A stretch of 64,000 nucleotides of DNA from Candidatus Dojkabacteria bacterium (GCA_040765985.1 JAXGRK010000002.1:9940-73939), one strand, 5' to 3'; counted from the first letter of the stretch, positions 2,318-60,500 are shown. Made by a program: numbers and translations. Notes: generated from the letters alone by a model not told the origin.

Positions 2318-2903
2318 CTATTTTTCAATATATATTTTTACTAAATCTCCATTTGAACCAGGTATTGGTCCACTAATTAAAATGTGGTTATCTTTAATAC
2401 CAACTATTCTCTTATTTTTAATTGTCACCTTGTCTGAACCCATTCTTCCACCCATTCTAGTTCCTTTAAATACTCTACCTGGATCTGTACCTGCGCCAAT
2501 AGAACCAGGAGCTCTCAACCTATCTGATTGTCCGTGTGTTCTAGGCCCTCCTTTAAATCCATGCCTTTTTACTACACCTGCAAAACCCTTACCCTTAGAC
2601 ACACCACTTACTGTAACAATATCACCCTCATTAAATGTCTCTGCTACTAAGTCACTTCCTAAAGCTAAGCCCTCTGGTAACTCTCCCTCAACAAGCCATT
2701 TGTGCATAGGGACATATCCAAGTTCTTTGTATTGGCCTAGTTGTGCTTTTGTACCTTTCTTTTACTACCTAAAGTAAGTTCAATCTTGTCACCTTTAACA
2801 TTGGCTATCTTACATCCAGCAACATCAATAAAAGTAACAGGTATTGCCCTGTCTTTCTCGAATATCCTTGTCATTCCTTTTTTAATTCCTAATATTGCTT
2901 TCA
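2318..2903 (-). CDS. rplC: 50S ribosomal protein L3, reading frame interrupted by an apparent 1-nt deletion near 2752-2756
   Basis: The N-terminal segment MKAILGIKKGMTRIFEKDRAIPVTFIDVAGCKIANVKGDKIELTLGSKR (from the ATG at 2903) is in a different frame from the track ORF 2318..2707 (KGTKAQLGQYKELGYVPMHKWL...GPRTHGQSDRLRAPGSIGAGTDPGRVFKG). Restoring one A in the run aaaag joins them into a full-length L3. Confidence 0.85.
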
Positions 2904-2915
2904 TATTTTTTTTAA

Positions 2916-3227
2916 TTATTGAATCTCAAGTCCCACACCAGCTGGCATTTGTAGATGCTGTAATGCATCTATTGTCTTAGGTGTTGGATCAATGATATCT
3001 ATTACTCTCTTGTGAGTAGCTATCTCAAAGTGTTCAATTGAACTCTTATAGATAAATGGTGACCTGTTAACAGCCAATTTCCTCTTTCTTGTTGGTAAAG
3101 GAATAGGACCAGCTACCTTAGCACCTGTACTAATAGCAGTCTCTATAATGCTTTTAGAGGATTTATCCAATACTACTGCATCATATCCTTTTAACTTTAC
3201 TCTGATTTTTGAACCTCTTTCACTCAT
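2916..3227 (-). CDS. rpsJ: 30S ribosomal protein S10
   Basis: 103 aa. [16 protein letters not shown]...[14 protein letters not shown], typical S10. First gene of the S10 operon. Confidence 0.93.
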
Positions 3228-3265
3228 TCTATCTTAAAGAGCTAAATTAATTTTTTTTATATATA

Positions 3266-3285
3266 CAGGGAGCTAACGCTCCCTG
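3266..3285. other. GC-rich perfect hairpin (8-bp stem cagggagc/gctccctg, 4-nt loop) in the AT-rich tuf-rpsJ spacer
   Basis: Inverted repeat read directly from the sequence. A T8 run lies 5' of it on the plus strand and an A8 run 3' on the minus transcript, so it is not a canonical intrinsic terminator for either strand. Possible attenuator or processing site. Confidence 0.3.
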
Positions 3286-13489: not shown

Positions 13490-16109
13490 TTAATTACATT
13501 GATTACACCCCGAAAGACCTGGGACATCACAACCGAAACTTTGTAATACAGCCAAAGGATCAACGGCAGAGCCATTCATTTTTATCTCAAGATGTAAGTG
13601 GGGACCAGTCCAACAAGCTCCTGTTGGTAACTTAGTAAGAACTGCAGCAATAGGTTTTCTATCTTCGGATATAAAATCTCCTCCCAACTCGCTTCCTATG
13701 GCTAACTCTTCATTTTAACTTAACATGAACGAAAAGAAAGGTATAAGTATTTGTTCCATCAAATGCCTCAAATTTTACATAATCGCCAGCAGGAGATTTA
13801 CAAGGATAGTTTGCAGAACTTGTCACTTTACATGAAGTACCTGGTTTTCCACAGAATTGAGGAGCGTAAAGACCACCACTAAAGCCCAAATCAACAGGTT
13901 TTGCACCTGAAATATTTGCATGACTAAAACAGGTACCATCATCAACCCAACCTTGAGTACAACTAACACCCGAAGAAGTCCCAAGTATACATTTTTCCCC
14001 TGTAAGTGGTGGCATGACAACATCTTCTTCTTCATAGTCATCTTCGGGGTTTTCTGGTGTAGGTTCTGTGAATTCATAATCAGGACATATTTCAACTTTA
14101 CCAGGTATTACACTTCTATAGGAGTATGTCCATACATTGTAATCTGCTACTGCCTTATTGGCTATTCCTGAAAGTAAAATAAAAACTCCAACTATACCAA
14201 AAGCTATCAAAACACCTAAAGACATAAAAACCTTCGTTAGTTTCATAAGCATATCAGTAAGAACCCATGTGACAGCAGTAACAAAAGCACTTCCTAAGGG
14301 TGTTAATACCAAACCAGCAGCACCAGCTATTGCTGTAACTAAAGATCGGACTAAAGTTTTTAATCCACCCTGAGTAATCCATGTTCCAAGAAGTTTTCCA
14401 GCACCCGATTTAATCATCCATTTTTTAAGAGTTGCATTTTTAAGAAGCATTCTCGCAAAGTTTACCCTAGCTTTTTTCGTTATTTTGTTTTTGAAAAAAC
14501 TTTCAATTTTCCCTTTTATTCTATTTCCTGTACCAAATATATTTGCTACCGCCTTCAGTGTTTTTGACCTCTTAAATACATATTCTATTCTTCTAAGATT
14601 CTTTTCTGATATTCCAGAAGTTTTTAATTTAAGTAAGGTTGTCCGCATGTATTCATCCATTTTTTTACCAGAAAGTTTTTCAAAATTTGCAAACAACTCT
14701 TTTTGAGATAAACCCTCTATATCATCAAGGGATTCAAGTTGTTTACTGAGAAGAAAAACAAATCCCTCCCCATTGAACAAAAAAGTATTGATTAAAGATT
14801 TAGGAGTCATGTAGTAAAGAGATTCTCCCATTTCGTTATATGCGTTCTTTATTGAAGATCCCTTTCCTGTAGTTTCTTCTGCCCTAAGAATTCTAACTCC
14901 AAAAGCTTGTTTTGTAGTTGTGGGACAAAGGACAGAGTTTCTTCCTTCGTTAAAAAAATCTCCATTAATAATACTAGGTACCAAATTCTTCATCGAAAGT
15001 CCCCCCCAAACATCATTTATTGAATTTACATATCCTTCAATCCTTCCCAAACCACCGATAAAATTATTTCTATTACCTAATAGTTTTCTTGCAATTTCTC
15101 CATCTCTAATAGCGCCCTCTATTTCTTGTCTTCTAGCAGGATCCTTTTCATCTTTCAAGGCCAGTTTTAAATCCTGCATTTGCGATTCATTTCTCATATT
15201 TATGAGCAAGAGACTTTTTTCATACATTTTTCTCTGTTTCTCTTCTGGTGATCCAGCAGAAGCATTCTTTAAAGGACCAATCTTACTCATTAAGTGGTCT
15301 TTTTCTAATTGTCTGTATAGTTCTGGACTTGAAATATCTATATCCTCTGTTTTGGTATGTGTTGCTCTTCCAAAACCCTCAGCTGCTTCTCTCCCATATC
15401 TTTGAGCCAAATATCTTTGAATAAATTCCTTCTGAACTCCCCCTGAAAGATCTTTCTCATTTGCAAATTTTTCAATAAATTCATACTTTTCTTGCTCTCC
15501 CATTGAATCCCATTTATTTCCAAATGTTCTTCTTCCAATTAGTTCAATACTCCTATCTCTCATAAAATCTGAATTGGAAAGAGAATCTGTTCTAATATTT
15601 TGTCCTATTGCTCTTTGTACCTTGTATGCTTCGGCTTTTTCATTTGCACCCGCACGAGCTAGGGCAATTTCTTTTGCTTCCTGATCGCCATATTGATGAG
15701 CCCACGCAGTAGTAAGGAAATCATCCATTACCTCTCCTAAGAATCTTACCTTATTTTGCTTTCTGGCTAAGTTAATATCATCAATAGATTTTTGAACATA
15801 ACCCGCAGGATCTTTTAACAAATCTATGATTTTTCCAGTACTTATTGATAAACCACCATACTCATCAAATTTAACTTCTCCAAGTTTAATATCGAGCATA
15901 CGATTGTATTCTTTAATCATTGTGTTAGATAGAAACACACCAGGCATTTCTAACGATGCCACTAATGCATCAGTTAACATACTCTCTCCAGAGATACCAG
16001 TTGGTTTAATAGGTCTTCTTTTATCAGGACTTTTTTTAGATTCCTTGAAGATGAAGTCAAATATAGAACCTAATGCATCATAGTTTTCACTTTTATTTTT
16101 TTGAGCCAT
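13490..16109 (-). CDS. Large (roughly 870 aa) membrane protein with C-terminal M23/LytM peptidase domain. C-terminus split by an apparent 1-nt frameshift at about 13688-13712
   Basis: The track ORF 13710..16109 (roughly 590 aa soluble N-terminal region, then 2-3 TM helices, then a Cys-rich region) ends FLFVHVKLK*. The +1 frame continues ...ELAIGSELGGDFISEDRKPIAAVLTKLPTGACWTGPHLHLEIKMNGSAVDPL (track ORF 13490..13687), which is the M23 HxH signature. Adding one A in ttaaaatga fuses them. Confidence 0.6.
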
Positions 16110-22876: not shown

Positions 22877-24980
22877 TTATTCCTTAGTAACTTCTTCCTT
22901 CTTCTCGTTTACCTGTTTAATACTTAGCTTTAACTTACCATCTCTTTCCTTAGAAACAAGCTTTACTTTTACATCATCTCCCTCTTTAAGATACTTTCTT
23001 ACATCTTTAACAAACTCGTCTGTAATTTCGGACACATGGACTAAGCCAGATAGACCTGGAGCTATATCTACAAATGCACCATACTCCATTATACTTGCAA
23101 CTTTACCGTCATATATTTCTCCTACAACTGGTACTAAGCCAAGTTTTTTAACATAAGCTAAAGCCATATCTATTGATTCTTGATTCATTGCATATATATT
23201 TACAGCACCACTTTCCTCTACGGTAATTTCTGCCCCTGTTCTTTCAGTTAACTCTCTAATATTTTTTCCTCCTGGACCTATTAACTCTCCAATCTGATCT
23301 ACTGGAATTTCTGCTCTAGCAACCTTTGGAGCAAACTTGGATAGTTCTGCTTTTGGCTGAGAGATTGCTTTCTCCATTACCTCTAATACTTTTAATCTAG
23401 CAATTTTTGATTTCTCAAAGGTTTCTTTAACAATCTCTATGGTTAAACCCTTCATCTTGTTATCCATTTGTACTGCTGTAATACCATCTTTTGTACCTGT
23501 TACTTTGAAATCCATATCTCCATAGAAATCTTCTACACCCTGCATATCTGTAAGAATATGGAATGTACCATTCTCTTCATTTACTAAACCACAAGCTATT
23601 CCCCCAACCATCTTCTTAATTGGAACACCTGCAGCCATTAGTGCTAATGTTGAACCACAAGCTGATGCCATTGAACTTGAACCATTCTCTCCCTGAACTT
23701 CAGACATTACCAAAATTGTATATGGGAATTCATCTACAGATGGAATGACAGGAATTAGTGCTTTCTCTGCTAACATACCATGTCCTATTGCTCTTCTACT
23801 TGGAGATAGACGTGCTCTATCAGCATCTCCATAAGCAAAAGGTAAATCGTTGTAGTAATGCATATATCTTTTCTCTTTCTCACCTAACATATCATCAACT
23901 AACTTTGCATCTTTAAGTGTACCCAATGTAGCAATAGAGAGCACCTGTGTTACACCTCTGGTAAATAGGGCAGAACCATGAACTCTTGGTAGCAAGTCTA
24001 CCTCTGCATCCATTTCTCGTATTTCATCAAAGTCCCTGTTATCAGCTCTTTTACTCTTTTCTGCAACATACTTTCTCATGGTCTTCTTAAGAAGCTTTTC
24101 ATATCCCTCACTCATTTGAGATTTAGAGTATTTACCTTCAAAGTTTTTAAATACCTCTTCTTTAGTAGACTCATGTAACTCTTTATCTCCTTTTAAGAGG
24201 TTTTCTAAAAGTCTATCACCTAAAAATTTGGATATCTCTTCTATCATTGCTTCATCTATACTAAATGAAACATACTCTTTTTCAACCTTATCTAATTTCT
24301 TTAAGAATTCATTTTTGGACATCTACCCATTTTTGCATTTCAGATAAGCTCATTTCCATTGCCTTAATTACATCTGATTCAGGGATTTCATAACAACCTG
24401 CATCAATCATTGTAAATACCTTTCCATCACCCCCTAATACATAGTTCATTTTATTCTCCTCATCTACATCTTCCATACTTCTATAGATTGCCTTAATACT
24501 ATCTCCCTCCATACCCATTCGGACACCTGCAATAGGGCCATCAAATGGTGCATGTGAGTTCATAAGGGCAACTGACGCAGCATTTATTGCTAAAATTACA
24601 GGATCATTCTCCTCATCATATGACATTACAGTAACAATCAAGCTTAACTCATCCCTGTAATCGTCTGGAAATCTAGATCGTAGTGCTCTATCTATCATTC
24701 TTGCTTTTAAAACTGCATCATCACTTGGGAACCTCTCAATTTTTACAAATCTAGATCCATTAATCTTACCCGATGCATAGAATCTCTCTATATATTCAAC
24801 AGACATTGGGAAGTAATCATTTTCCTGTTTTGCTTTAGCAGTATTAACATTAACCTCAACAACGGTATCCCCCATTCTTGCAATAACTGCACTTTCTGAC
24901 TTTAAAGCAAGTTTTCCTGTTTCAAATGAACACTTCCTACCATCTATTTCAAACTCATAAATTTTTTGATTAAACAACAT
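22877..24980 (-). CDS. pnp: Polyribonucleotide nucleotidyltransferase (PNPase), split into two ORFs by an apparent 1-nt deletion at about 24309-24322
   Basis: ORF 24309..24980 is the first RNase PH domain. ORF 22877..24322 is the alpha-helical linker, second PH domain, KH (IGPGGKNIREL) and S1 domains. The frames differ by 1 at ccaaaaatg. One extra A gives ...KWVDVQKNEFLKKLDK... and a continuous roughly 704 aa PNPase. Confidence 0.9.
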
Positions 24981-25433: not shown

Positions 25434-26615
25434 TTATCGAGAAACCTTATAACAGTACAGTTCATCACCTTCGTTGCTTTCTACATCAATATCAAGAATC
25501 ACACCACAATCTTCTCCCTGTTTTACCTCATGTACAGTTTCTTTTCCTTTTCGTAATGATTTTATTTTACCTTCTGCCAATATTTCATCATTGCGAACAA
25601 CATAACATTTACAATCTCTTTTTAATATTCCATCCTTAACCCTAGAACCGAGTACCTTAGAACCATCTGAAAGTACAAACATCATTTTTATTACAGCACT
25701 TCCAATCTCTTCTTCGACATGTGCAGGAGTAGACAACATCTCCAACGCATCTTCAACCTCTTCAACCAATTTATAAATGATGGAGTAAGTTCTAACCAAA
25801 ACTCCACTCTTTTTTGCTACATCCTCAGAACCCTTTTCTATACCTACTTCGAAACCCAAAAGAATCGCTTTTGATAGTTTAGCCATCTCAATATCTTTAT
25901 TTGTTATATCTCCAACTCCATCAGATACAATATTAACTGAATACTCATCTTTCTTAACTTTCACTAATGATTGTTTTAATGCTTCTAGAGAACCTTGAGA
26001 AGAGCTCTTTACAATTACATTAAGAATCGTATCTCCGTCTTTCTGTTCTTCATCAAATATTGAACCGAATATGTCATCTTCAACAATACTCAAATCCTCT
26101 AATGTGGGTTCTACTTTGTACAAAGTAGAGAGTAATTTAAGATTATTTTTTTCTAAAATGAAAACTTCTGTACCTAAAGGTATTAAATTCGATATCCCTA
26201 TTACTTTACCACCACAACCACAAGATAAATCACAAATATTCTCTCCCTCCTCTGATATTATTCCTTTTACTTTCTCAATTTCAAAACTTTCTCCTTTTTT
26301 ATACCCTAACCAAGAGCCCTTACATAGGTCCCCACTTATTAACACCAATGAAGATATATTTCCTCTAGTCTTATCCTTTACTGATTCTAATACATAGGCC
26401 CTTGCAGCAACTCCTTCAGGTAAAACCCCTCTATCCTCTAAACCCTCAACATCAGCAACGAGATTGATTAAATCTAAAAGTTCGGAGATTCCTTTCCCAG
26501 TTTTTCCAGAAACCTCAATTACAGGTATATTTCCTCCCATACCCTCTACTTGTACCCCTTCTGTTTGTAATATCTCTTTTAATCTTAGCAAATATTTACA
26601 TTTCAGGCAGATCAA
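25434..26615 (-). CDS. infB: Translation initiation factor IF-2, intact 3' part only (end of G domain, domain II, C1, C2)
   Basis: 393 aa open frame. NIPVIEVSGKTGKGISELLDLI is the G5 region, followed by the beta-barrel and C-terminal domains. The frame is bounded upstream by stops. The 5' continuation is recognisable but disrupted (next feature). Confidence 0.85.
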   Translation of the reverse strand: MICLKCKYLLRLKEILQTEGVQVEGMGGNIPVIEVSGKTGKGISELLDLINLVADVEGLEDRGVLPEGVAARAYVLESVKDKTRGNISSLVLISGDLCKGSWLGYKKGESFEIEKVKGIISEEGENICDLSCGCGGKVIGISNLIPLGTEVFILEKNNLKLLSTLYKVEPTLEDLSIVEDDIFGSIFDEEQKDGDTILNVIVKSSSQGSLEALKQSLVKVKKDEYSVNIVSDGVGDITNKDIEMAKLSKAILLGFEVGIEKGSEDVAKKSGVLVRTYSIIYKLVEEVEDALEMLSTPAHVEEEIGSAVIKMMFVLSDGSKVLGSRVKDGILKRDCKCYVVRNDEILAEGKIKSLRKGKETVHEVKQGEDCGVILDIDVESNEGDELYCYKVSR

Positions 26616-27120
26616 TCTTGTTTATTACAACAATGGGTTTTATGGAGGATTTTTATTATTTCTATAGATTCAACAGTTTGTGGCTTAACACTATCATTAG
26701 CAGCAACTATTAAAAGAACAATATCTGCAATACTACTCCTCTAGATCTCATCAACTGAATGCTTCATGACCAGGTGTATCTATGTAATTTTTTTAGAAGC
26801 ATTTTTGCCTGGAGCAATTGTAAATACACAGATATCTTTGAGTTACCACCTGGCTTCACAACTTTGAACATGACTCTTTCTAATGTAATCAAGTATTGTA
26901 GCTTTTCCACATACATGACTCAATATTGCAACAATTGGGACTCTGGCTTGAGCACATATATTTTTGTTTCTCAACTTTTAACCATTTTAAACTATAATAC
27001 TTTCATCTTAATATTACTTCCTCTTTTTCTCTTCTTCTTTTCCTGCAACCTCTTCTTGTTTGCTCAGCATACTCCCCTCAACAGCATCTTCCTTTTTCTC
27101 TTTCTTTTCTTTTCTTCTTA
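26616..27120 (-). pseudogene. infB: Disrupted 5' part of infB (G-domain remnants in three frames with in-frame stops)
   Basis: Minus-strand pieces: PIVAILSHVCGKATILDYIRKS (P-loop with one codon missing and substitutions), IDTPGHEAFS, MRSRG, SSIADIVLLIVAANDSVKPQTVESIEII and [13 protein letters not shown] (G4 NKID). Each sits in a different frame. At least 4 frame changes within about 150 nt. Boundaries approximate. Confidence 0.6.
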
Positions 27121-28205
27121 TCTCCCTTCTCTAACTTCTTCATTCTCTTCCTGTATTTCTTCTGGTATCTCACCCTGGGCTCCAACAATATCAATCTTAA
27201 ATACCTGTCAATTTCCAAGCTAATCTTACATTTTGACTCCTCTCTACTGATAGCTATGATAGCTGATCAGAAGGAGATACCTGTTGCTGTATCATCAGAT
27301 ATTTCCAAGCAGAATCAACCTTTGCAGGACTTAATGCATTAGCAACAAATCTCTCTCTAAATCTTCATCCTTATCAATTATATCAATCTTTTCTCAAGCA
27401 AGTTCATTCATAATGTTTGCTATACGAATACCTCTCTGACCTACACATGAACTAATTGGATCAATACCATCTTGATGTGACACATGGGTAATTTTTTTCA
27501 TCTTCTAGAACTAGCTTTGCAACTGCCTTAATTTCAAATTCACACCAGATTCAATCTCAGGAACTTCCAATTTAAAAAGCTCTATTAAGAAATTAGATCT
27601 GCCTAGATACTAATATTTCAGAGTCTTCAATACTCTTAAGTAATACTTTGTACCTCTCTCCAACTCTATAGTAATTCATTAGCAATCTGCTCCTCTTGTG
27701 GCATAAATGCAGTTGCCCTTGCCTATCTCCATTACTGCCATACCTTTTGCATTCTTGTACCAAAGCTGTATATACCTCTCCTACCTTATCACTAAATTAC
27801 CTATTACTGCATCTCCTTTTCAGATTCTCTATCTTTTGGTAGTAAAACCTGTTTAGCGGTTTGTGTAGCTATCCTTCCTAAATCATCAGATGCATCTCAA
27901 TCTGAACAGAATCCCCTATCTCAACACTTGGAGAAATTAACTCTGCCTTCACTTAATGCAATCAGTCTCAGTCATCGTTTACCTTTTTAACAACTTTCAT
28001 TGCAAAGTTTAAAACTCACCAGTCTCTCTATCAACTCCTACTGCTAAATTACTACCTAACTTTTCATCAATCTCCTCATATTCAACCTTCCATGTTTCTC
28101 TTTCTTAATGTACTTAATATTTATTCCAAGGCCTTAAAGATCTCCTTTATCTATTCTCTTTTCTGTTGCTATCTGATTTATGGCAGCTACTAACTCTGAT
28201 GTCAT
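27120..28205 (-). pseudogene. nusA: Disrupted nusA remnant
   Basis: From the ATG at 28205, MTSELVAAINQIATEKRIDKGD (NusA N-terminus). Further on, DPISSCVGQRGIRIANIMNELA*EKIDIIDKDEDLE and FVANALSPAKVDSAWKYLMIQQQVSPSDQLS*LSVERSQNVRLAWKLTGI*D (KH1/KH2), with TGA, TAA and TAG stops and frame changes. Boundaries approximate. Confidence 0.55.
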
Positions 28206-28251
28206 TGCTATATATATAAAATATTAATAAAAAATTATCATTACATACATA

Positions 28252-28285: not shown

Positions 28286-28289
28286 TTAA

Positions 28290-36760: not shown

Positions 36761-38198
36761 ATGACAGTATCTATTGACATGACAGACAAGGAGATTTTAC
36801 CAAAAGGTCCCATTATCTTAGATTCAAATAATCTAAAAACCAAAAAAAGAAAACATTGGATATTTATCCCTCTTTCAATTTTACTCATCACTATTCTTGG
36901 TATCGGAATATATTTTCTTTACAAAGGGTACAAAGTTGGAGAAGGAATCGGCTTTAATTTCTCTCCCGGTAATTTAATTGATATTAAGAAGGATCCAGAA
37001 TTAAAAAAAGATAGTACACAAACATATACGAATATATTACTTGTTGGTATAGATACAAGAGAAAATTCTAAATTACTAAATACAGATGTCATTATCTTAG
37101 CATCGTATAATCATCTAACCAAAGATATTGTAATGATCTCTGTACCAAGAGATTTCTATGCTCAGGTTAATCCAGATAGGGTTGGTTTTAGTAAAATTAA
37201 TTCTGCATATTCAATAAATGAAGCTAAAAAGAGTGATTACGGTTTGGAAGTACTTCAAGATATCGTAGAAGATATAACTGGTATGGAAATTCAATACCAT
37301 GCAATGATAAATTTCGAGGGCTTTATTGAATTGATTGATGCAGTAGGAGGTGTGTATGTTAATGTTGAGAACAGTTTCACTGATTACAGATACCCACTTG
37401 GAACTAAATATCAGACAGTATCATTCAAAGAAGGACCGCAATTGATGGATGGAGAAACTGCTTTGAAATATGCCAGATCCAGACACTCTCAACAAAATGG
37501 AGAGGCTCAGATTATGCAAGAGCTAGAAGACAACAAAAGGTAATGGATTCATTTAAAGAAGCCCTACTAAGTACAGAAACTCTTCTCAACCCTACAAAAG
37601 TCATGTCTCTATTAAGTTCTGTACAAGATAATCTTCAAATTTCTGAATTCTCTTTAGAAGATGTTCAAGCAGGTGTAAATATTCTTAAATCATTAAATTC
37701 TGAAGAACAAAAAGCTTCAACCTACTCCTTTGTCTTAGATCCTACAGTAGGAAATTACTCACTAATTACTACAAATGTACCTAGTGAAGGTTACGCAATT
37801 GGCCCAAAAGAGGGCTTGGGAAATACACAAAAATTAATGAATATGTCCAACTTGTAATTAAAAATCCTCTACTTTACTCTGAGAATCCATCCATATACAC
37901 TTACGATGTTGGATTAGGATACAAAGAAAGTAATACAGAAACCCAAGAATTAAAAGACCAGTTTAAATATCTTAATATACGATTCCAAGGTACAAAATTT
38001 AAAGATAAAGAAGGAACATATATATATTCAAATATTACCGATGAATTCGTCAAATCCGTTGACTTCATATCACAATATCTTAAAATTGAAAACAAGAGTA
38101 AACCAGAATACTTAACAACAAATACAGGTGGAGATATATCTATCCTCTTTGGTAAAGAGATTTTAGATCAACAAATTATCCAAGAAGAAGTAGAATAA
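36761..38198 (+). CDS. LytR-CpsA-Psr (LCP) family cell-envelope phosphotransferase, reading frame broken twice (about 37535 and about 37830)
   Basis: ORF 36761..37543 has an N-terminal TM plus ILLVGIDTRENSKLL...VMISVPRD (LCP core). It continues in ORF 37543..37857 after a frame change in caacaaaagg (one A short). A third open frame 37788..38198 follows another frame change in acaaaaatt. All three are contiguous. Confidence 0.7.
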
Positions 38199-41320: not shown

Positions 41321-41741
41321 TTGCTTTAACAATAATATAATCAATTAAATTATAAACATTAGATCTCCCATATATTGTAATCTCTAATTTATGATCCCCA
41401 ATATCTGAAATAGTTGGAATACCATATAAATACCTTCGATCCCTTAATTCGATCCACTCTACACCACTAATAACTATTTCTACTTCCTCTATATTACATC
41501 CTACAATATTTGGAACAAAGTAATACTCTTTTCCAACATAGGCGATATTAGGAATTACATTACTAATATACGGTTTACAACCGGTCTCTTGAATATTTAC
41601 ACCTTTAACACTCTTCGTTACTCTTCTTGATTAAATAGATTGAAGAGACTATTGCTACAGATGGAATTAGAATAAAGCACAGTATAAAGTACTCTCTTTG
41701 TATTAATCATATATAAAATAGTGTATCAATAAAATTTTCTG

Positions 41742-41770
41742 TTTACAAACTCCATTTCAATATATATAAT
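41742..41770 (+). promoter_or_regulatory. Candidate rpsT promoter (TTTACA-N17-TATAAT)
   Basis: tttacaaactccatttcaatatatataat ending roughly 37 nt upstream of the rpsT ATG. Confidence 0.4.
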
Positions 41771-41806
41771 ACAACACAGTTATCAATCATTTTATTAATT
41801 AAGAAA

Positions 41807-42074
41807 ATGCCAAATTTAAAAACATCTATTAAAGATTTAAGAAGTTCAAAGAAAAACCGTTTACAATGACAGATTAAGAAAAAGAGTTAAAGAAATCTGT
41901 TAAGAATTTTACTAACGCATTAAATATCGGAGAAAAGAAGTAAAGCCGAGAAAGTATTAAAAAATGTTTACAAAGTTCTTGACAAAGCAGCTAAGAAAAA
42001 TGTTATAAACAAAGGTAAAGGCAAGTCGAAAAAAATCACGACTTGCAGTTCAACAACAAACTGTCCAAAGATAA
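41807..42074 (+). CDS. rpsT: 30S ribosomal protein S20, frame broken about 4 times within a 268-nt gene
   Basis: MPNLKTSIKDLRSSKKNRL / YNDRLRKRVKE / KSVKNFTNALNIGEKK / AEKVLKNVYKVLDKAAKKNVINKGK / ASRKKSRLAVQQQTVQR* are consecutive S20 segments in alternating frames. Every break is at an A-rich (Lys codon) run. Its stop overlaps the next gene's ATG. Confidence 0.75.
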
Positions 42075-42622: not shown

Positions 42623-42798
42623 TGAAAAATCAGAAACTTAAAAAAATTCTTTACACTTTTTTAGAGCCATTCGCATTTGGTATACTTGCATTGATATTTA
42701 TAATTCCAACGATAACAGTTGTTAACTTAGAACCTATTACTAAAGTATTAAAAAATTTAGATGTTTTAGGTGTATCAGAAGAACAAGAGTTGAAATAA
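42622..42798 (+). CDS. Small (58 aa) membrane protein, translationally coupled (stop/start overlap) to the upstream gene
   Basis: MKNQKLKKILYTFLEPFAFGILALIFIIPTITVVNLEPITKVLKNLDVLGVSEEQELK. Below the track length cutoff. Confidence 0.35.
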   Translation: MKNQKLKKILYTFLEPFAFGILALIFIIPTITVVNLEPITKVLKNLDVLGVSEEQELK

Positions 42799-43222: not shown

Positions 43223-45046
43223 ATGGTTAATACGAATTTAAATACAATACGCAATTTCTCAATAATTGCACATATAGATCACGGTAAATCTACATTGGCA
43301 GATAGAATACTTGAGCAAGCACATATCGATATCTCAAGAGATAAAAGAGAGTCTCGAATATTAGATAGATTAGATTTAGAACAAGAGAAAGGGATAACGA
43401 TAAAACTACAAGCATGCAGATTGATATGGAAAAATATAGAGCTAAATCTCATAGACACTCCTGGTCATGTAGATTTCTCCTATGAAGTATCTCGATCTCT
43501 TGCTGCTTGTGAGGGAGCACTTCTTCTCATAGATGCCTCACAAGGTGTACAAGCACAAACCATATCTAATACACAAAAAGCCCTAGAGCTTGGATTAACC
43601 TTAATACCAGTAATAAACAAAATTGATTTACCAAATATAAACATCAAAGAGAAAGAAGATGAATTAATTCAATTACTTGGGTTTAAGCGAGAAGAGATTC
43701 TTAAAGTATCTGGTAAAACAGGGGAAGGTATAGAGAAACTTCTAGATACAATCATTGAGAAATGCCCTCCCCCAATTGGAGATATTAACAAACCTCTTAG
43801 AGCTTTAATATTTGATTCTTACTATGACGAACATCGAGGTGTAGTAATAGCAGTAAGAGTGTTTGATGGAAATATAAAATATGTACCTGGAAAATCAGAT
43901 GATCTTTACATATTACAAAGGCAACAACCCTTTAAACCAACAGAGATAGGGATATTTACACCAGATTTAGAAGAAACTACCCAACTATCTGCAGGAGAAG
44001 TTGGATATATAGCTACTGGCTTTAAAGATATTAGTATGTTTACTGTTGGAGACACAGTATCTAATACAAAAGACACATTACCATTAGATGGGTACAAAAC
44101 ACCAAAACCAAATGTATACGCTACATTCTTTCCAGTTACTACAGATCAGTATGAGCCCTTAAAAATTGGCTTAAACAAATTGAGCTTAAATGATGCATCC
44201 CTCTCTTTTTCTGATCAAAGATCAAACCTACTCGGCTCTGGTTTCAGATGTGGCTTCCTTGGGCTTTTACATATGGAAATTATCCAAGAAAGATTAGAAA
44301 GGGAGTATGATGTTGATTTGATAATTACAGCGCCCACAGTAGAGTACAAGGTTACTAAAACAGATGGTACTAAACTTGAGGTTCAAACTCCTCAAGAGAT
44401 ACCCGACCCATCAGAAATATCTGAAATTCAAGAACCATGGGTAAGATTAAAAATTATGACTCCAGATAGATACATGGGACCCCTAATGGAGCTATGTCAA
44501 CATAAAAGAGGAGTATATGTAAATACACAATATCTACCAAACACATCAGGTGACATTCAACTTAAAGATCAATATATTACATTAGAGTATGATATACCAC
44601 TAGCATCTTTAGTATCTAATTTTTTTGATTTACTCAAAAACAGATCTAGTGGATACGCATCAATGGAGTATGAATTTATTGATTTCTTTCCAGTAGATTT
44701 GGTAAAAGTATCGGTTCTTGTAAATCATCAGGAAATACCAGCACTAAGTTTTCTTGAAACAAAAAGTTAGCACAAAGTAAAGCGAATAAATTACTTGAGG
44801 TAATGAAAGAAGAGATTCCTAGACAGCAATTCCCTATTCCATTACAGGCATCTATAGGGGCTAAAATAATTGCAAGAGAAGACGTTAAGGGCTTTAGAAA
44901 AGATGTTACTGCTAAACTATACGGTGGAGACTACACTAGAAGATTAAAATTATTAGAGAAACAGAAGAAAGGTAAAAAAAAGATTGAAAATGATAGGGCA
45001 AGTAAACATCCCTCAAGAAGCGTTCTTAAGTATATTAAAAACATAA
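43223..45046 (+). CDS. lepA: Elongation factor 4 (LepA), C-terminus broken by two apparent 1-nt deletions (about 44760 and about 44965)
   Basis: ORF 43223..44770 has the GTPase motifs ([22 protein letters not shown]) and LepA domains. The C-terminal piece ...[64 protein letters not shown] sits in the frame of track ORF 44803. The final [21 protein letters not shown] is in a third frame after an A8 run. Confidence 0.9.
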
Positions 45047-46116
45047 TGATTAAAAAGCTTACTCTTACAAATTTTAGGAAATTTGAAACTAAAACCCTTG
45101 AGTTTGATAAAAATATCGTTATTTTTTACGGTCATAATGCACAAGGGAAAAGCTCAATACTAGAGGCAATATATTTAATAAACACAGGGATATCTCCATG
45201 GGCTTCAATGAATGAATTCGTAAATATCAATCAGAGCAATCAAATATTTACAAGAATTGAATCTTTAGAAGATGATAAAAGTTTTGTATATTACAAAGAC
45301 GAAGAGAAGAGAATTTTTAAAATAGATGGTAAAAATACAATACCATCTAAATTTTTTGAAAACAGATCTGCAAATATATTTAATCCCGAAAAAATAGAGC
45401 TACTAATGATATCTCCTTCTCAAAGAAGGGAGTTTCTTGATGACACTATACTTAAATATGATTATGAATATCAAACACTAATCAAAGATTTTAAAAAGAT
45501 TTTAAGACAAAGAAATGCATATTTAAAAAAACTAGCCAAACTCTTCTATGATAAAGGTGTAATTGCAATTAACGATCCTCAATTAAATTTCTGGAGTAAT
45601 CATTTTTCATTAACTTCTGCATATATATTACAAAACAGAATTAAATTGATAAAAGAGTTATCTAACAATGAATATGAAATTAAATATAAAACAGATATCG
45701 ATTTTGATAAAGAAAGTTAAATAATATTGAATATCTGAAGAAGTGTTTTGAGAAAGAGTTAGAAAAAAACAAAAGAAGAGATATAGCTACTGGGTATACT
45801 AATGTTGGACCACATAGAGATGATTGGGATATATTAAACGATAGAGACATAAGAAATTCGGTTCAAGGGGAGAAAAAGATTAGCGATAGGTAAACTTATA
45901 TTTGAAACTCAACAAATTATTTTTAATAAAACAAGTAATTACCCTGTACTACTTCTAGATGATATTGCCTCTGAGTTAGATATCTTTAATACTAAAAAAA
46001 TTTTTGATAAAAAATTACTTAATAAACAACAAACATTTATTACTGTCATCGATTACAAATCTCTCCCAAAAAATATTCTCAACAATGCACAACTAATACA
46101 CCTAAATGGTTTATAA
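45046..46116 (+). CDS. recF: DNA replication/repair protein RecF, frame broken twice (about 45715 and about 45880)
   Basis: [45 protein letters not shown] (Walker A). Later ...[14 protein letters not shown] (RecF signature). C-terminal [35 protein letters not shown] (Walker B/D-loop). The three segments lie in three frames joined at A-runs. Confidence 0.8.
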
Positions 46117-47585: not shown

Positions 47586-49954
47586 ATGGAAGATAGTAAA
47601 TACAAATCAAAAACTATGGAGATGTTAGAGAATAAGAGTAGCTCTCTTACCGAGAACAAGTATGTATCTTTTAGGGAGGACTTAAATAAAGAATTAGAAA
47701 CAATAAAAAATAAAGATGATGGTTTAAAAGTAAATAACAAAGAAAGATATAATGAGCCAGAGAAGAAAGAAGAAGAAAAGAATATATTTTTTAAATTCCT
47801 TGATAACTTTATCCCTCAAAAAACAACACCTTCTGCAATCTCTAAAGAACCAAACGAAGCTAGATATGATGGTTTAACTACACAAGATATAATAGCCCCA
47901 ATTGATTTAGAAGTTGATTTTAACACCTTACAGATGGGTAACTATTACTTTAGATCTTTTTTTATAAGTGGATATCAAGATTTGTTGGTCCTAACTGGTT
48001 ATCCCCTATTATTAACTTCGAACATTCTCTTCGAATAAGTACTTTTTACTATCCTGTTGATTCAAAAGTTATTCTAGACAAACTTAGAAAAAAGATTGGA
48101 GAGATGGAAGCAACAATATATGGTCAAATGGAAGAAAAGAAAAGTTGTAGATCCATCTGTGAAAGTAGCACTTTCGATGCTCAACAGTTGCAAGATTCTA
48201 TTGCAGAGGGTACTGAAAAATTCTTTCATTTCACAATGTACATTACTATATACGCACCAACAAAAGAGCTATTAGAAAAATACAGTAGGAATGTTACATC
48301 TACTCTTGCAGCAATTAGTGTAACTGCAAAATCAACAACCTTACAACAGGAACAGGCCTTTATTAGTACTCAACCTATCGGTCTAGACAAGCTATATATT
48401 ACAAGGAATATGGATACTACATCCTTAGCTACTACCTTTCCTTTTGTAACTTCAGAGCTAACTATGGACCATGGAATTATGTATGGAATAAATATGCATA
48501 ATAATAGTTTGGTGATATTTGATAGATTCGAGCTTGAAAATGCTAACACCGTTGTCTTCGCTAAATCAGGTGCAGGTAAAAGCTACTTTGTTAAACTAGA
48601 GGCAATTAGAAGTTTAATGCTTGGCACAGATGTCATTATCATAGATCCTGAAAGAGAATATGAAGATCTTTCTAAGGCCGTAGGTGGGTCATATATATCA
48701 TTCTCACAGGATAAAGGTCACAAGATGAACCCATTCGAACTATCAGGAGTATCTGAAGAGGGTGATGATGAATTAAGAATGAAACTTTTATCACTACAAG
48801 GATTCTTTAAAGTAATGTTTGATGGCTTGAGTAGTATAGAATCCTCTATCCTTGACAGAGCCCTAATATTAACATACAGAGAGAAAGGTATTACCTTTGA
48901 TCCTGATACACAAACAAATACCCCCCCTATGCTTGAAGATCTATACAAGGTGCTAAAGGGTATGGCTGAGAACGAAGCCCATGAGTTGGCTCGAAGGATG
49001 GAGAAATATATCATAGGTAGTGGTGCGGGTGTGTTTAACGAAGCAACTAATTTCGAAATTAAAAATCCATTTACCGTATTTAGTGTTAGAGATTTGCAGG
49101 AAGAACTAAAACCCTTATCAATGTATTTGATGTTGGATTTCATCTGGACAGTAATTCGTAAGAACAAAAAAAGACGACTTCTACTTGTTGATGAGGCCTG
49201 GTATATGATGCAAAGAGAAGACTCTGCTAGATTTATGTACTCGATAGCGAAAAGAGCAAGAAAGTACTACTTAGGTTTAACAACAATAACTCAAGATGTT
49301 GCAGATTTCTTAACTAACGATATGGGAAGAGCAATAATATCAAACTCCTCTCTTCAAATGCTCATGATGCAAAGCCCAACCACTTTAGACAAATTACAGG
49401 AAGTCTTTAATCTTTCTGATGGAGAAAAAACTTTCCTTCTTAACTGTGAAAAAGGTCAAGGACTTTTCTTTGCAGGAGCAAATCATGTGGCCATTCAAGT
49501 GCTATCGAGTGTACAAGAACATGAGTTAATCACTTCTGACCCAAGAGAGTTAGAGCAAAGAAAATTACAAGGAGACAGAGATGAAACAAGAACTATTGAT
49601 GAATTAGCAGCGATATTTGACCCCCCAGCAACACAACAAGCTGTGACAACTGAGACCACAAGAAACAAAACTTTGATTGAAAGAGCCGTTGGAAGAAGAA
49701 AAGAAGATATTGGTGTAATACAACAAGAAACTACTAGATATCAAGAAGAATTAAAGAAGAGATTAGAGGAACAAGAGAGAGAATTAAATCCTAAAAAATA
49801 TGAATCCCAGAAAAGCTTTAATGAGATAATTGAAGAGAATACCATTCCTGGAAAGATTGTTCGGGAAAGAAGAGATATTCAAGAAGGAGTTAGACATATT
49901 ACTCCACAAGGTATAATAGGAGATGACAATGAGCAACAACCAAAACAATATTAG
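47586..49954 (+). CDS. VirB4/TrbE/PrgJ-family conjugal-transfer (type IV secretion) ATPase, frame broken once at about 47981-47990
   Basis: ORF 47586..48038 (...LQMGNYYFRSFFISGYQDL) and ORF 48104..49954 (Walker A VVFAKSGAGKSYFV, DPEREY, Walker B LLLVDEAWYMM) lie in frames joined through an open stretch from 47954. The second frame reads ...GPNWLSPIINFEHSLRISTFYYPVD upstream of the track ATG, the conserved VirB4 G.P.WL..L block. Confidence 0.8.
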
Positions 49955-54805: not shown

Positions 54806-56027
54806 TTACAATTTATCTATTCCTGGTATAGGGAAATCTTTAGTAAACTCTTTTACTTCCTCTTTAATTAATTTAATATCTTTTTCTGATTTACTCTTTA
54901 ATGCTCTATCTATATACTCAGCTACTCTTTCCATATCACTCTCTTTCATACCTCTTGTTGTAATAGCGGGTGTACCAATTCTAACTCCCGATGGGTCCCA
55001 AGGTTTTCTTTCATCAAAGGGTATACTGTTTTTGTTCAAAGTAATATTAACACTCTCTAAAATATCAGATACCTCCTTACCACTCATATTTATACTTTTA
55101 ACAGTATCTACTAAAAATAGATGGTTATCTGTACCCCAGATACAATGGTATATCCTTTTTGAATTAAAGAATTAGCCAACGCCTTCGCATTTAATATAAT
55201 CTGTTTAATATCTTTAAACTCATTACTCTTTGCTTCCGTAGCGCAACCGCTATACCAGCAGTTGTATGGTTATGTGGACCCCCTTGACCAGAGAAATACC
55301 GCTTTATCTATTACTTCACCATACTCTCTTACAAAGAATCATTGCCCCTCTTGGCCCTCTTAAGGTTTTGTGTGTAGTAGTAGTCACTACATCTGCAATA
55401 CCCACAGGAAGAGATACTGATCTGCTACAATTAACCCTGCTACATGTGCAATGTCTGCAACAAATATAGCTGCAACTTCATCAGCTATCTTTCTGAACTC
55501 TTTCAATCAATTATTCTTGAATAGGCACTAAATCCACTCCATATTAATTTAGGTCTGTGTTTCTGATCTTTCGCACTTCATCATAATCAATATATCATCT
55601 TTATTTACCCGTAACTTACTGAGTTAAAATATTTACCACTAATTGATACTTAAAACCATGAGTAAGATGGCCACCAGCTGATAGACCCATACCCATTGTT
55701 CTGTCACTGATTTAAAAATGCTAAATGTACTGCTAAGTTAGCAGGCGAACCAGAATATGGTTGTACATTTACATGCTCTGCTTTAAATACCTCTTTAGCC
55801 CTAGATATACACTCCTTTTCAATCTCATCAATATATTCATTACCACCATAGTATCTTTTATCTGGATATCCCTCAGAGTATTTATTTGTAAGAATACTTC
55901 CCATTGCTCTAAGGACATTTTCACTTACATAGTTTTCAGAGGCAATTAACTCTATACCCTCTTTTTGTCTTTTAGCTTCATCCTTTATATATTTAAAAAC
56001 AATATCCTCTTTATACATTCTTTTTGT
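54806..56027 (-). CDS. glyA: Serine hydroxymethyltransferase, central third broken by at least 4-6 frame changes
   Basis: The N-terminal ORF ([37 protein letters not shown]...) and C-terminal ORF ([29 protein letters not shown]) are intact. Between them [94 protein letters not shown] and [10 protein letters not shown] are all present but distributed over three frames. Probable ATG at 56027, overlapping the folD stop. Confidence 0.85.
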
Positions 56028-56855
56028 AAGCATCAATTAAATTACTAAGTAAACATACAATTGTCATTGGTCCAACACCACCTGGAACAGGAGTAATGTA
56101 TGAAACAGTATCTTTAACACTTTCAAAATTAACATCTCCTACCAATTTCCCTTCCTCATTTTTATTCGTCCCTACATCTATTACAACAGCACCCTCTTTT
56201 ATATATTCCCTATCTATATATTCTGGTTTCCTATACCTACAATTAATATATCAGCCATATTACAACTGCTTTAAGATTTGGGGTATGAGAGTGACATACT
56301 GTTACTGTAGCATTTTCATTTTGTAGTAGTGCTGCTACTGGTAATCCAACAATATCCTTTCCAATTACAACTGCTCTTTTCCCATCTATTTCTATTCTGT
56401 ACTCTTCTTAGTAACTCTAATATTCCTTTTGCTGTGGCTGGAGCTATAGCTGATGGATCATTTTTAAAAAGTTTACCTAAATTAACAGATGTTAAACCAT
56501 CTACATCTTTTAATGGAGATATTTTTTCTAAAATATTACTCTCGTTAATTTGCTTTGGTAGTGGTAATTGAACCATTACTCCATCTACATTAGTATCTTT
56601 ATTTAAATCTTCTACCAACTGTATTAACTCACTTTCTTGTACACTTTCTTCAAAGGTATGTACATTACACTGTATTCCTAACTCTTGTGCTTTTTTAGAT
56701 TTCATTTGTACATATTTTTGACTACCGAAATCATTACCTACAAGCAATATATCTAGTTGAGGAACTCTTTTATCTAAATTAAGATACTCCTGTATATCCT
56801 TTTGTATCTTTTCAGATATTTTTAATGCTGTTTGTTTACCATCTAATATTGTCAT
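56020..56855 (-). CDS. folD: Bifunctional methylenetetrahydrofolate dehydrogenase/cyclohydrolase, frame broken at least 3 times
   Basis: The track ORF 56316..56855 is the N-terminal half up to ...[10 protein letters not shown]. Downstream, [64 protein letters not shown] and [53 protein letters not shown]... lie in successive frames. Confidence 0.85.
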
Positions 56856-56911
56856 ATCTTTTAATATGTAAAAATATATTTATGTATTTTACAGGATATT
56901 TGAATATTTTT

Positions 56912-57569
56912 TTACTCTGTATCCCTAATTGCTACTACAACAGTTCTTTTAATATTTGCACCAGCAGGCCAACATGTCATTAAGGTAAGAGTGTCTTGGT
57001 CTAGATATTCACCTAAATACTGTATATCTTTTGGGTCTACAATCTTAACTTCTAGTACTTTGTAAGTATATATATCTCCTTGGTAGCTTACATATAATCA
57101 TCTTTTTCTAATTCATTTAGTAGTAGAAGTATACATTGTACTTCCTTCTTTCATAGAAGTTTACAGCAGAGTGTGCAAACAGAAATACATTTCCTTCTTC
57201 ATTTGGTAGTGCACTTCCTTTAGCGTGTGCTACACCGTATATTAGTGCTGTGCTATACCTTTCCTCATTGTATGGATCTACATTTTTTAATACTTTGGCA
57301 TTAGCTTGTATTTTAGGTATGTAGAGTCCAAAATCACTGTTTACAAACACTATCTCTGTATCTTTTTCAATCTCAGTAGTAATCTCTTCACCTTTAGGGG
57401 TTACTTCTACTTTAATTTCTTCTACTGGTTTAGGAGAGAATTTGTAATCAAAGTATGACCATATTAATGGTTGATATGTAAAAAAAAGAATAACTAATCC
57501 TACAAGAAGTAGTAGGATACCCAGATATTTTGAGTATCCTACTTTTGATTTACTTTTTTCTTCTGACAT
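56912..57569 (-). CDS. Sortase (transpeptidase), frame broken twice near 57060-57116
   Basis: The track ORF 57117..57584 has an N-terminal TM, beta strands and the catalytic His region GVAHAKGSALPNEEGNVFLFAHS. After two frame changes the sequence continues ...LNELEKDDY / LYVSYQGDIYTYKVLEVKIVDPKDIQYLGEYLDQDTLTLMTCWPAGANIKRTVVVAIRDTE*, with the TLxTC catalytic Cys and the conserved Arg. The start is probably the second Met (57569). Confidence 0.8.
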
Positions 57570-60500
57570 ATGAGTATCCTGCACTTCCTAATACTACCAC
57601 TGCTGCTGCAATTATTACATACTTATATTTATTCCAGAAAGTTTCGTCTGTATCATCTTCTTCTCCATCTTTATCCTCTCCATTCTCTTCATCTTCATCT
57701 CCTTTTACCTCTCCGTTGTCTTCTTCCTCTTGGTCAGGATTCTCTTCACCTTCCTCGCCCGCAGTAGTCTCCTCTCCTGCTACCTCTCCTGTTTCTCCAT
57801 TAACAGTAACTGTTGTTGCAGTTGTTCCTTGTATTACTGTTACAATATTATCTGTAACAAAGCTAGAGAAGTTTCCTAAATCATCTAATGCTCTAATTGC
57901 ATAGTAGTACTCTTTAGTACAGTCTAATGGGTCATCATCTGCATATGTTACAGCTGTGTTTGGCCCAACTGTTAATGTATCAATTAATGTAGAAGCGTTA
58001 GCTGTAAATGGTTGTGTGCTTGATCTAAATATTTCTACTTTAGATGTTCTACCATCATTTGCTGTTTTAAATGAAAGTGTATATTTACATGTACCTTCTG
58101 TTTTTGCATAGTTTATTACTGGTAGTGGTTTCTCAAGTACGACCTCCACTGAAACAGTACTAGATATGTTTTCATCACCACCAGCCTTTGCTTTTACATA
58201 GAAATCATAGGTACCACTTGTAGTAACTAATGCTGGGGTAACTTCACAGTTACCACTGTTAGTAGCATATGTACCAAAGAGAATACCGTCTTTATAACAC
58301 TCTACTGTTACTGTTCTATTTTGTAAATCCAATGCTACAAATCCTATCTTGAAAGTATTCTTATTAGTAGGAGTTACTGGTTGCTCAATTCTTACATCAA
58401 TATCTGCTACCGATGCATATGTAGGTAGGGGTTTTAGTATAAAGAACATACTAAATAGGACTACTCCTGCAATAAATAGGTTTTTAATTCTTTTCTTTGG
58501 ATTAAATACTAATAGAATGAATCCTAATATCATCGATATTAATGCTCCTAATGTTATATATGTATCTGCACCTGTTCTAGGTAGAGTAATCGCTGCACCT
58601 AACACTTCTCCTTCTTCTATTTCAGGATCGTTCTCTACTTTAACTTGAGTACCTACGAAGTATTTACCCACAATACCATCGTTTATCTCAAAGCCCGAAC
58701 CTTCAGATATCGCAAGTAGGTTTGATCCCATTATTCCTATTCCTTTTGCATAGGCAAGGTCAGGATATTTACCTGCATCAACAAGATCTGTTACCAAAGC
58801 TTTATACGTTATTGTAACTATTTCACCCACAAGTATCTTTCCTAATTCCCACTTTCCAGGTGAGGAATACTTCACTGCAGAGATATCTAAAATTCCTCTT
58901 ACATTTGATATTGCTCTAAATGTACCTGATTGGGGTATGAAGCCTTCAGGAGGGAGATCTATGAGGATTACATTGTTTACTGAACTCTTTTCTGCTCTAA
59001 CTTTTATTGTATATGTTACTGTATCACCAATTGCTAGAGTATTTGGCCAACTATCATTTGTTTTACTTATATACAATTCTGATTTTTGAACATTACCTAT
59101 GTAACAGGACCTATTATCTCCAGAAGAAACTTCTAAGTTATATGCATTATTATTGTAAATACCATTTTCTAAAATAGGTGATGATATTGCTCTATCAACT
59201 TCAGCTCCATTAGAACAGTATATGTCGGTAACACCCATAACTGGACATCCTGGCCTATTATCCCAATTCATATCGATACTCCCTCTCGAGTTAAATAAGT
59301 TACAGTCACTAAACTCTGGACATGTTTTCTGTTCTCCAAATGATACTAGATTACTATACCCATTAACTTCACATGCCCATTGAGCACATGTTTGAGCATC
59401 ACCACAACCATTCCATCCAGAACAAGCACCATGATGCCCATATGCTTCTCTAGGAGAGGTTATCAAGACTCCTTCTCTGTCATCCTCACAATATATTCCA
59501 GTTTGATCCCAACCATCTTTCATACTCTCACTTAGAACATATGAATCAGGAAGTAAACTGAACTTCGTACTTCCGTCAATATCTGTAATCTGACTATATC
59601 CCTCTTCTTCAATCTTGGATATATTTATTTCCCAATCGGATAGGAAAGATTCTCCTTCATCAAGTACACCATTAGCATTTAGGTCATTAAACTTGTAAAC
59701 AGTAATACTACCTTTTTGAAGATTTCCAAACTTGTATGTTGGTCCCTCAACTGCATTTACTTGGTCAAGAAAACCTTTAGGATTTTCATCTGGCAAAGTT
59801 ATAGTATGACAATTATTTCCCTCATTTATAGGGTATGTCTGAACCCAACCATCTTGTAATTCCTCACAAACGGTATATTCACCAAGTTTTAAATCTTCAA
59901 ACCAATACCATCCTAGATGATCTTCATTGTCAGTTAACATATATCTCTCACCTTCATCAAATTGACTATTTTCATTTTCATCAATGAATATCTTCCAATT
60001 ACCCAACAAAGGTTCTAATTCACACTGTTCCATTGCTCTGTTTTGAGCTAAAGATCGGACATCATCATACATTTCTTCTCCTATACAGTTTCTCTCTCCA
60101 TCTCCATTTATATCGCTCCATTTATACCCATGTATATCTCCTGTAGATTGAGTGTTAAATGCAACACAGTAATATGTTTGACCATATTCTGGTCTATTTA
60201 ACCATTCCCAGTTGTCATAGTTTGCAACATCTTTGTCACAGTAAAATTCTGCAGAGAAATCATCTGAGTTATTATTGTTGTTATATGTAAATGGTATGTA
60301 GTTTTCTTGGAGTACTTCTCTTAATTCAATTCTACTTCCCTTAAGATTATTAATCTTAGCTATTGCTATTCCTTCTTCACCAACTGCACTAAATGTATTC
60401 CAATCCTCACCTCCATATCCTATATATTCATCACCGGGGTTTCCTGCTCCTTGATATCCCCATTCAAATTCCCAGGTTGGTTCTAACCTACAGTGTCCTT

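Follow-up and report, generated by a model that had tools for sequence, protein, structure and literature searches.

The window, by which we mean the whole stretch of 64,000 nucleotides analysed here, comes from a Candidatus Dojkabacteria (WS6) draft genome, a lineage of the candidate phyla radiation. Intact orthologues from approximately 90 related contigs were aligned to the window with a frameshift-aware aligner, and these orthologue-anchored alignments placed 38 frame-changing events in 14 genes outside a block of about 4 kb that was left out of this count, where a preliminary description of the sequence had estimated about 25 breaks. All 13 of the genes listed in that description do carry breaks, and in 12 of them the pieces are consecutive parts of one protein, as had been stated, the exception being an M23-like gene; the fourteenth gene (41313-41725, minus strand; 2 events) had gone unlisted. 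The minimum counts given for glyA (at least 4) and folD (at least 3) were borne out at 11 and 3 events, whereas the four breaks proposed for rpsT and the two for recF proved too few, at 5 and 3 respectively.

On the minus strand of the left-hand part, the rplC gene (protein L3) lacks one base within 2737..2761, where the three-frame view leaves the exact site ambiguous within AGTAAAAGAAAGGTACAAAAGC; residues 1-189 of the joined protein align in one stretch to a bacterial L3 chain (7jil_C, E = 7e-41). The M23-like protein (13705..13720, minus strand) shows a +1 frame change at TTAAAATGA, which, taking both ORFs as a single gene, would amount to an extra A (A3 to A4). This join is putative and is based on frame geometry and on weak matches of the downstream piece to the M23 (HxH) motif in the PDB (E = 0.2); a large protein search gave no homologue spanning the join at E ≤ 1e-5, and there was no Pfam match. 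In pnp (24309..24322, minus strand) one extra A (A4 to A5) at CCAAAAATG divides the Pfam domains between two pieces, and the joined protein aligned over 4-694 to the PNPase 5yjj_A in a single stretch with a gap-free junction (E = 2e-162). The LCP (LytR-CpsA-Psr) gene (37503..37817, plus strand) has two single-base losses, at 37503 (GGAGA|GGC) and 37817 (GGCTT|GGG); the A-runs at 37533 and 37827 previously named as its break sites lie 30 and 10 nt downstream of these orthologue-anchored points. The corrected LCP protein matches 1-145 of the 150 positions of the Pfam LytR_cpsA_psr domain.

Further along, a patch of 7 events (41610..42054) touches two genes, as seen in a DNA alignment with five relatives: the previously unlisted gene, encoding a hypothetical membrane protein, has gains at 41610 and about 41686, and in rpsT (protein S20; 41806-42099, plus strand) two bases are lost at each of 41846 and 42054 and one is gained at each of 41889, 41941 and 42017, the corrected S20 giving a Pfam match over 1-80 of 83. 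A conserved hypothetical protein (ORF 42610-43172, plus strand) lacks one base within 42779..42797, a placement made by 8/8 orthologues tested. On the same strand, the frame of lepA (44766..44974) leaves at 44766, where a base is missing (ACAAAAAG), and returns at 44974, where there is an extra A (A7 to A8), with 8/8 orthologues in agreement. Three single-base losses lie in recF (45710..45873, plus strand), at 45710 (A4 to A3), 45853 (A4 to A3) and 45873 (A6 to A5), the corrected protein giving an SMC_N/RecF Pfam match, and virB4 (47977..48175, plus strand) has three events, namely a loss at 47977 (CC to C), a gain at 48137 (A3 to A4) and a loss at 48175, again supported by 8/8 orthologues. 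The remaining genes are on the minus strand: a Lon-like AAA+ protein lacks one base at 50336, with the Lon_lid Pfam domain spanning the corrected site; glyA (55136..55709) has 11 events, all of them net losses (seven 1-base, three 2-base and one 4-base), several of which fall in GG, GGGG or CC in a DNA alignment with four relatives; folD (56224..56405) has losses at 56224 and 56265 and a gain at 56405; and a sortase gene (57095..57121) has lost one base at 57121 and four at 57095. After correction, the glyA product matched Pfam SHMT over 8-399 of 399 (E = 9e-145), both FolD domains were full length and the sortase matched 1-122 of the 125 domain positions; end-to-end Pfam matches were obtained for S20, SHMT, FolD, sortase, RecF, LCP and the Lon-like protein.

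The genes tuf, fusA, uvrD, alaS, sufS, thyX and the large adhesin gene are unbroken, as had been described save for one ambiguous site in the adhesin: fusA, alaS, sufS and thyX aligned to their orthologues without breaks, and tuf, uvrD and the adhesin gene are each one single long ORF. An internal LPXTG signal in the adhesin was considered as the mark of a lost stop codon and rejected, since three relatives conserve it. Between 6.8 and 23 kb, two overlapping ORF pairs (8010-9309 and 11246-12509) were inspected for hidden breaks and no split domain was found; the G5/transglycosylase-like protein has a normal end.

The 4-kb block (26562..30669) contains at least 63 frame-changing indels (1.53% per base), located by frameshift-aware alignment to the syntenic intact ORFs of two relatives, L081 and L086. 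By gene they number 5 in the N-terminal part of infB, 17 in nusA, 20 in dnaJ, 11 in a sortase-like gene and 10 at the start of a gene for a solute-binding protein. After correction the identity of the block genes (0.74-0.85) is in the range of unbroken genes, and those with 17-20 indels are 0.75-0.76 identical to L081, like their unbroken neighbours. An RNA gene as the reason for the scarcity of ORFs in the block was rejected, there being no tRNAs and no Rfam matches.

Across these sites no break was found in any of the orthologous ORFs of the relatives, all of which are intact in the related Dojkabacteria assemblies. The candidate ORFs compared numbered 17-115 per gene for 41-56 kb, 4 for the sortase, 8-9 for LCP and 2-3 for the block. 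No same-species assembly appeared in the genome or metagenome scans, which returned other Dojkabacteria species only, with best protein identities of 87-92% (genome scan) and 80% (metagenome scan), and no recorded protein was identical to the tuf, alaS or sufS product; the absence of the frameshifts from independent assemblies, a check proposed at the outset, therefore holds against related species only. Adding or removing 1-4 bases restores a full-length match at every break other than the putative M23-like join, the residues flanking verifiable breaks are identical in the orthologues, and the corrected frames of the genes outside the block contain no internal stop codons. Among columns at least 90% conserved in 29-40 orthologues, the window differs at 0/36 in S20, 1/128 in RecF and 8/216 in SHMT, 7 of these last 8 lying inside the indel patch and most of them beside indels; unbroken genes have 0.6-1.9% of such columns changed.

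Nearly all of the breaks had been attributed to one missing base, mostly at A-runs; the first part of this claim proved wrong, and A-runs found no support as the cause. The aligner scored 23 events as 'one base missing' and 15 as 'one base extra', but DNA alignments and orthologue lengths revealed 2-base losses behind five of the 'extra' calls and 4-base losses behind two of the 'missing' calls. About 10 of the 38 events are left as true gains, among them those in the lepA run (A7 to A8), in the M23-like gene (A3 to A4) and in pnp (A4 to A5). With gains and 2-base and 4-base losses present, the breaks are thus not always -1 relative to the orthologues. Some events lie outside any run, such as those at 41941, where a T has entered between G and A, and at 42054, where a whole TT is gone, and the T gained at 41610, like that at 41941, adjoins no T. 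The longest run within 3 nt averaged 2.95 at events and 2.75 at random positions (p = 0.11), and there was no enrichment near long runs inside the 4-kb block either (p = 0.52); patches contain 14 of the window's 150 long runs, and the other 136 are outside. Many events do fall in short runs, because at the 33% GC of this genome half of the bases belong to a run of two or more.

The events were strongly clustered, as the preliminary description had noted, with a dispersion index of 3.8 in 500-bp bins and a median gap of 101 bp against an expected 1,081 bp, a value reached in 0 of 10,000 permutations. Their density is bimodal: the patches hold 33 events in 2,115 bp (1.56% per base), the 4,108-bp block a closely similar density, and the remaining approximately 58 kb only 5 events, which break the frames of rplC, the M23-like gene, pnp, the Lon-like gene and ORF 42610 and all lie at short runs. 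In all there are nine multi-event low-accuracy stretches of 27 bp to 4.1 kb, with indels at a uniform density of about 1.5% per base and almost no substitutions. Two possible causes of the patches were rejected, namely GC content (0.336 in patches vs 0.332) and repeats, as no patch 20-mer recurs elsewhere in the window. The balance of gains and losses also differs between patches (Fisher p = 0.0025): the rpsT patch counts 5 gains to 2 losses, the glyA patch no gains to 11 losses. What governs where events occur is position, in short low-accuracy patches, and not run length.

The broken frames are present in the sequence, but they are consensus errors in short low-accuracy patches and not dead genes. 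We consider it highly probable that the frame breaks arose in the assembly consensus and do not belong to the organism's DNA, and that in the window accurate sequence alternates, mosaic-like, with unpolished sequence from error-prone reads. The view that these are sequence errors and neither pseudogenes nor programmed frameshifts was already put forward in the preliminary description, and it is upheld by the lack of any break common to relatives, the retention of conserved residues and the occurrence of up to 11-20 indels in essential genes. Frameshifted gene calls are a known result of indels in long-read consensus, and metagenome bins of low coverage require polishing with short reads (PMC9262707). 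The most likely source of the patches, inferring both the sequencing technology and the polishing history, is a consensus of error-prone long reads: about 58 kb is accurate sequence with 5 isolated indels, and the patches would be long-read consensus uncorrected by accurate reads, either where short-read polishing failed for want of short-read support or where long reads bridged gaps in a short-read assembly. The errors are mostly losses of 1, 2 or 4 bases, with a quarter gains, and run length does not decide where they occur. Two observations count against this scheme: a single uniform error process does not predict the differing gain and loss bias of the rpsT and glyA patches, and an uncorrected stretch as long as 4.1 kb calls for a cause other than that of the patches of 27-574 bp.

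Among other explanations, coverage-dependent homopolymer under-calling, in which nearly always one base is lost in an A-run, has in its favour the many single-base losses that are compatible with shortening of short runs (e.g. the three in recF, or AAA to AA and GG to G in glyA) and the isolated background events, all of which are at short runs. It nevertheless fails to account for the gains, about 10 of 38, which include the M23-like, pnp and lepA A8 sites that had served as its examples, for the five 2-base and two 4-base losses, for the T gains without a neighbouring T, and for the want of enrichment at long runs both outside (p = 0.11) and inside the block, with only 14/150 of these in patches. 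As the sole mechanism it is already contradicted, and on the whole we regard it as improbable, while a dependence of the breaks on local coverage is plausible.

Real pseudogenisation in a decaying symbiont genome would suit the Dojkabacteria in general, whose genomes are small and which probably rely on other cells, and some bacteria can do without PNPase, RecF or sortase. The affected genes, however, include infB, nusA, rplC, rpsT, glyA and lepA, some hit 11-20 times; no lesion is common to relatives, conserved residues are kept, the corrected genes outside the block lack stops, and substitutions would be far more numerous had neutral decay produced 11-20 indels per kb, so we find this reading scarcely credible. 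Equally little weight is given to the possibility that the patches are real DNA, with broken essential genes rescued by pervasive slippage or with localised indel-only hypermutation tracts. Programmed recoding, by ribosomal frameshifting or transcriptional slippage, has the slightest claim, for polymerase slippage at A-runs is known in AT-rich endosymbionts and a few sites (lepA A8, pnp A5) are in tracts of this type, but orthologues are in frame at every site, leaving no conserved slippery site, most sites have no slippery motif, single genes have up to 11 events (glyA 11, rpsT 5), and the shifts run in both directions with multi-base changes. An alternative genetic code was also rejected, as the breaks are frame changes and the long ORFs use all three stop codons.

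The consensus-error reading has quality-control value only, and its biological interest is low. The practical conclusion drawn earlier holds, in that no broken gene in the window should be scored as inactivated, and without re-polishing of the patches gene calls, completeness, pseudogene counts and metabolic reconstruction will be wrong, infB, nusA, dnaJ, rplC, rpsT, glyA, folD, lepA, recF, pnp, virB4, sortase and LCP being the genes misread. Since the errors follow the patches rather than homopolymers, a repair limited to homopolymers would leave at least a third of them uncorrected. Curators can take the boundaries of the patches as a guide, and in the interim frameshift-aware alignment to relatives gives usable proteins.

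Compared with known systems, the window most resembles the indel errors of long-read (Nanopore, PacBio CLR) consensus sequences and metagenome-assembled genomes, as exposed by the IDEEL protein-length test (PMC9262707), with split genes whose pieces are consecutive in one protein, indels far exceeding substitutions, losses exceeding gains, frequent involvement of short runs and an expected cure by polishing with accurate reads. It differs in that the errors are neither spread along the contig nor concentrated in long homopolymers, but lie in sharply bounded patches of about 1.5% per base in a nearly error-free background, which points to polishing left incomplete, or to gaps filled with long reads, and not to a consensus built from long reads only. 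Miscalls of flow chemistry (454, Ion Torrent) are likewise indel-only and go in both directions, and patches of roughly read length (160-570 bp) would fit them, whereas the multi-base losses, the insertions outside runs and the lack of run-length dependence do not. The poly(A) frameshifts of insect endosymbionts, with transcriptional slippage, share with this window an AT-rich small genome, needed genes and A-runs. In the endosymbionts of Tamas et al. 2008 each affected gene reportedly has a single site, a long, sequencing-confirmed tract of about 9 or more A. By contrast, most sites in the Dojkabacteria window fall outside long A tracts, one gene may have as many as 11, and relatives share none of them.

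Orthologue-anchored alignment identified 38 frame-changing events (indels that change frame relative to intact orthologues) across 14 genes of the window outside an ORF-poor 4-kb block at 26562-30669. The preliminary description had counted about 25 such breaks; its observation was largely confirmed, its count too low. The events fell in glyA (11), rpsT (5), recF, virB4 and folD (3 each), the LCP (LytR-CpsA-Psr) gene, lepA and sortase (2 each), and rplC, pnp, the Lon-like gene, ORF 42610-43172 and, as a putative join, the M23-like gene (1 each). These genes had all been listed correctly; absent from that list was a hypothetical membrane protein gene conserved in Dojkabacteria (41313-41725, minus strand), with extra-base events at 41610 and ~41686 in the same patch as rpsT. 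The genes regarded as untouched proved so: fusA, alaS, sufS and thyX gave unbroken alignments, and tuf, uvrD and the adhesin are each one long ORF. Inside the glyA patch (minus strand), a 3-base in-frame gap at ~55215 relative to four relatives could be an additional error invisible to a frame-based count or a genuine one-codon difference.

The window has a GC content of 33%, without tRNA genes or Rfam matches. With the long virB4 fragment as query, species-representative genomes yielded 80 loci (61–92% identity), nearly all labelled Candidatus Dojkabacteria/WS6 or other Patescibacteria-type (Saccharibacteria, Microgenomates, Nomurabacteria), and metagenomes queried with the MltG-like protein gave 10 further loci (53–80% identity); no same-species contig was found in either scan. 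Gene order is kept in relatives across ~25.7-57.6 kb, so that nearly all genes of that span could be compared with intact orthologous ORFs. A type IV secretion-like cluster at 46167-49954 (plus strand), encoding a PrgI-family protein, a 213-aa protein and VirB4, is conserved in all 80 virB4 loci. Up to eight orthologues per gene were run through a protein-to-DNA aligner written for the job, which allows a base to be skipped or a codon to have two bases; genes without syntenic relatives were compared with PDB. When joined, rplC aligned to L3 in a single stretch (1-189; PDB, E = 7e-41) and pnp to PNPase over 4-694 with an ungapped junction (PDB, E = 2e-162), while frame-corrected S20, SHMT, FolD, sortase, RecF, LCP and Lon-like proteins (7/7) matched their Pfam models end to end. 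The putative M23-like join gave a weak motif match in the downstream piece alone, and neither Pfam matches nor homologues.

No break was common to any of the aligned orthologous ORFs of related loci, and no internal stops remained in corrected genes outside the block. Among columns at least 90% identical in 29–40 orthologues, the window altered 0/36 in S20, 1/128 in RecF, 4/419 in VirB4 and 8/216 in SHMT (7 of the 8 inside the indel patch, most adjoining indels); unbroken genes altered 0.6–1.9%. After correction, nusA and dnaJ, with 17–20 indels each, retained 0.75–0.76 identity to the related locus L081, like their unbroken neighbours. The lack of breaks in orthologues, the lack of substitution decay and the identity of the genes affected, including infB, nusA, rplC, rpsT and glyA, together argue that the breaks are errors. 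Real decay and programmed frameshifting were both rejected: with decay, so many indels would bring many more substitutions, and programmed frameshifting would be conserved and confined to single sites. The frame breaks are an artefact of the assembly and of little biological interest, and the earlier advice that no gene be scored as inactivated from them without read support is correct.

Two unusual ORFs were also observed. The giant adhesin ORF (57550-63999, minus strand), which adjoins the sortase gene, carries an internal LPRTG sorting signal (~58530), followed by a membrane-spanning segment, the basic stretch NPKKRIK and, in frame without a stop, a signal-peptide-like segment; ~300 further residues close with a second membrane-spanning segment and RRKK. 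This layout recurs in single ORFs of three related loci (L006, L011, L009) and is therefore conserved, not an error; the adhesin may be a sortase-processed polyprotein, and the LPRTG region is probably the one site previously called ambiguous there. The thyX-like ORF (53203-54795, minus strand; 531 aa) is about twice the usual length, with two Thy1 (PF02511) matches, and its length is matched in relatives (526 aa in L076); this looks like a ThyX with tandem domains, typical of the group, and not like an error.

The clustering of errors noted earlier was borne out (index of dispersion 3.8), with a median inter-event gap of 101 bp against 1,081 bp expected, matched in 0 of 10,000 permutations. 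Eight patches of 27–574 bp, 2,115 bp in total, hold 33 events (1.56% per base), and the remaining ~58 kb five isolated ones. The 4,108-bp block, whose gene order is common to L081 and another related locus, L086, has the same density, with at least 63 events (1.53% per base) in the N-terminal part of infB, nusA, dnaJ, a sortase-like gene and the start of a solute-binding protein gene; since stops persist in part of the block's corrected frames, the true count is higher. Patches and background did not differ in GC (0.336 vs 0.332), and no patch 20-mer was repeated elsewhere in the window.

The mechanism proposed earlier, loss of one base in A-runs, was not supported. Of the aligner's calls, 23 were 'one base missing' and 15 'one base extra'; aligning rpsT and glyA with relatives at the DNA level, together with residue-level alignments, turned five 'extra' calls into 2-base losses (41846, 42054, 55296, 55327, 55709) and two 'missing' calls into 4-base losses (55563, 57095), leaving about 10 true gains. 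These include A3 to A4 at the putative M23-like join, A4 to A5 in pnp, A7 to A8 in lepA (44974), A3 to A4 in virB4 (48137) and two inserted Ts without a neighbouring T (41610, 41941). Several glyA losses lie in GG, GGGG or CC, not A-runs. Within 3 nt of an event, the longest run averaged 2.95 outside the block (2.75 at random positions, p = 0.11) and 2.71 within it (p = 0.52). Long runs (at least 6 for A or T, at least 5 for G or C) number 150 in the window; 136 of them lie beyond the patches, where the only five frame-breaking events are all at short runs. In LCP, the true break points lie 10–30 nt upstream of the A-runs proposed for them, which suggests that the last A-run ahead of each stop codon had been chosen. 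The rpsT patch (41610-42054; 5 gains, 2 two-base losses) and the glyA patch (55136-55709; 0 gains, 11 net losses) differ in balance (Fisher p = 0.0025), which may reflect differing supporting reads or strands.

The bimodal density (~1.5% in every patch, large or small, vs ~0.01% elsewhere) points to two sequence classes, corrected and uncorrected. Patches of tens to hundreds of bases are more in keeping with dropouts of short-read support than with swings in long-read depth, which extend over kilobases, and the uncorrected sequence may have arisen through incomplete polishing or long-read gap filling. Frameshifted gene calls from long-read consensus are well documented, and short-read polishing is needed for low-coverage metagenome bins (PMC9262707). 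The error spectrum, which is indel-only and loss-biased with multi-base losses and a weak tie to runs, looks like that of a low-depth long-read consensus, and is closer to Nanopore than to flow chemistry.
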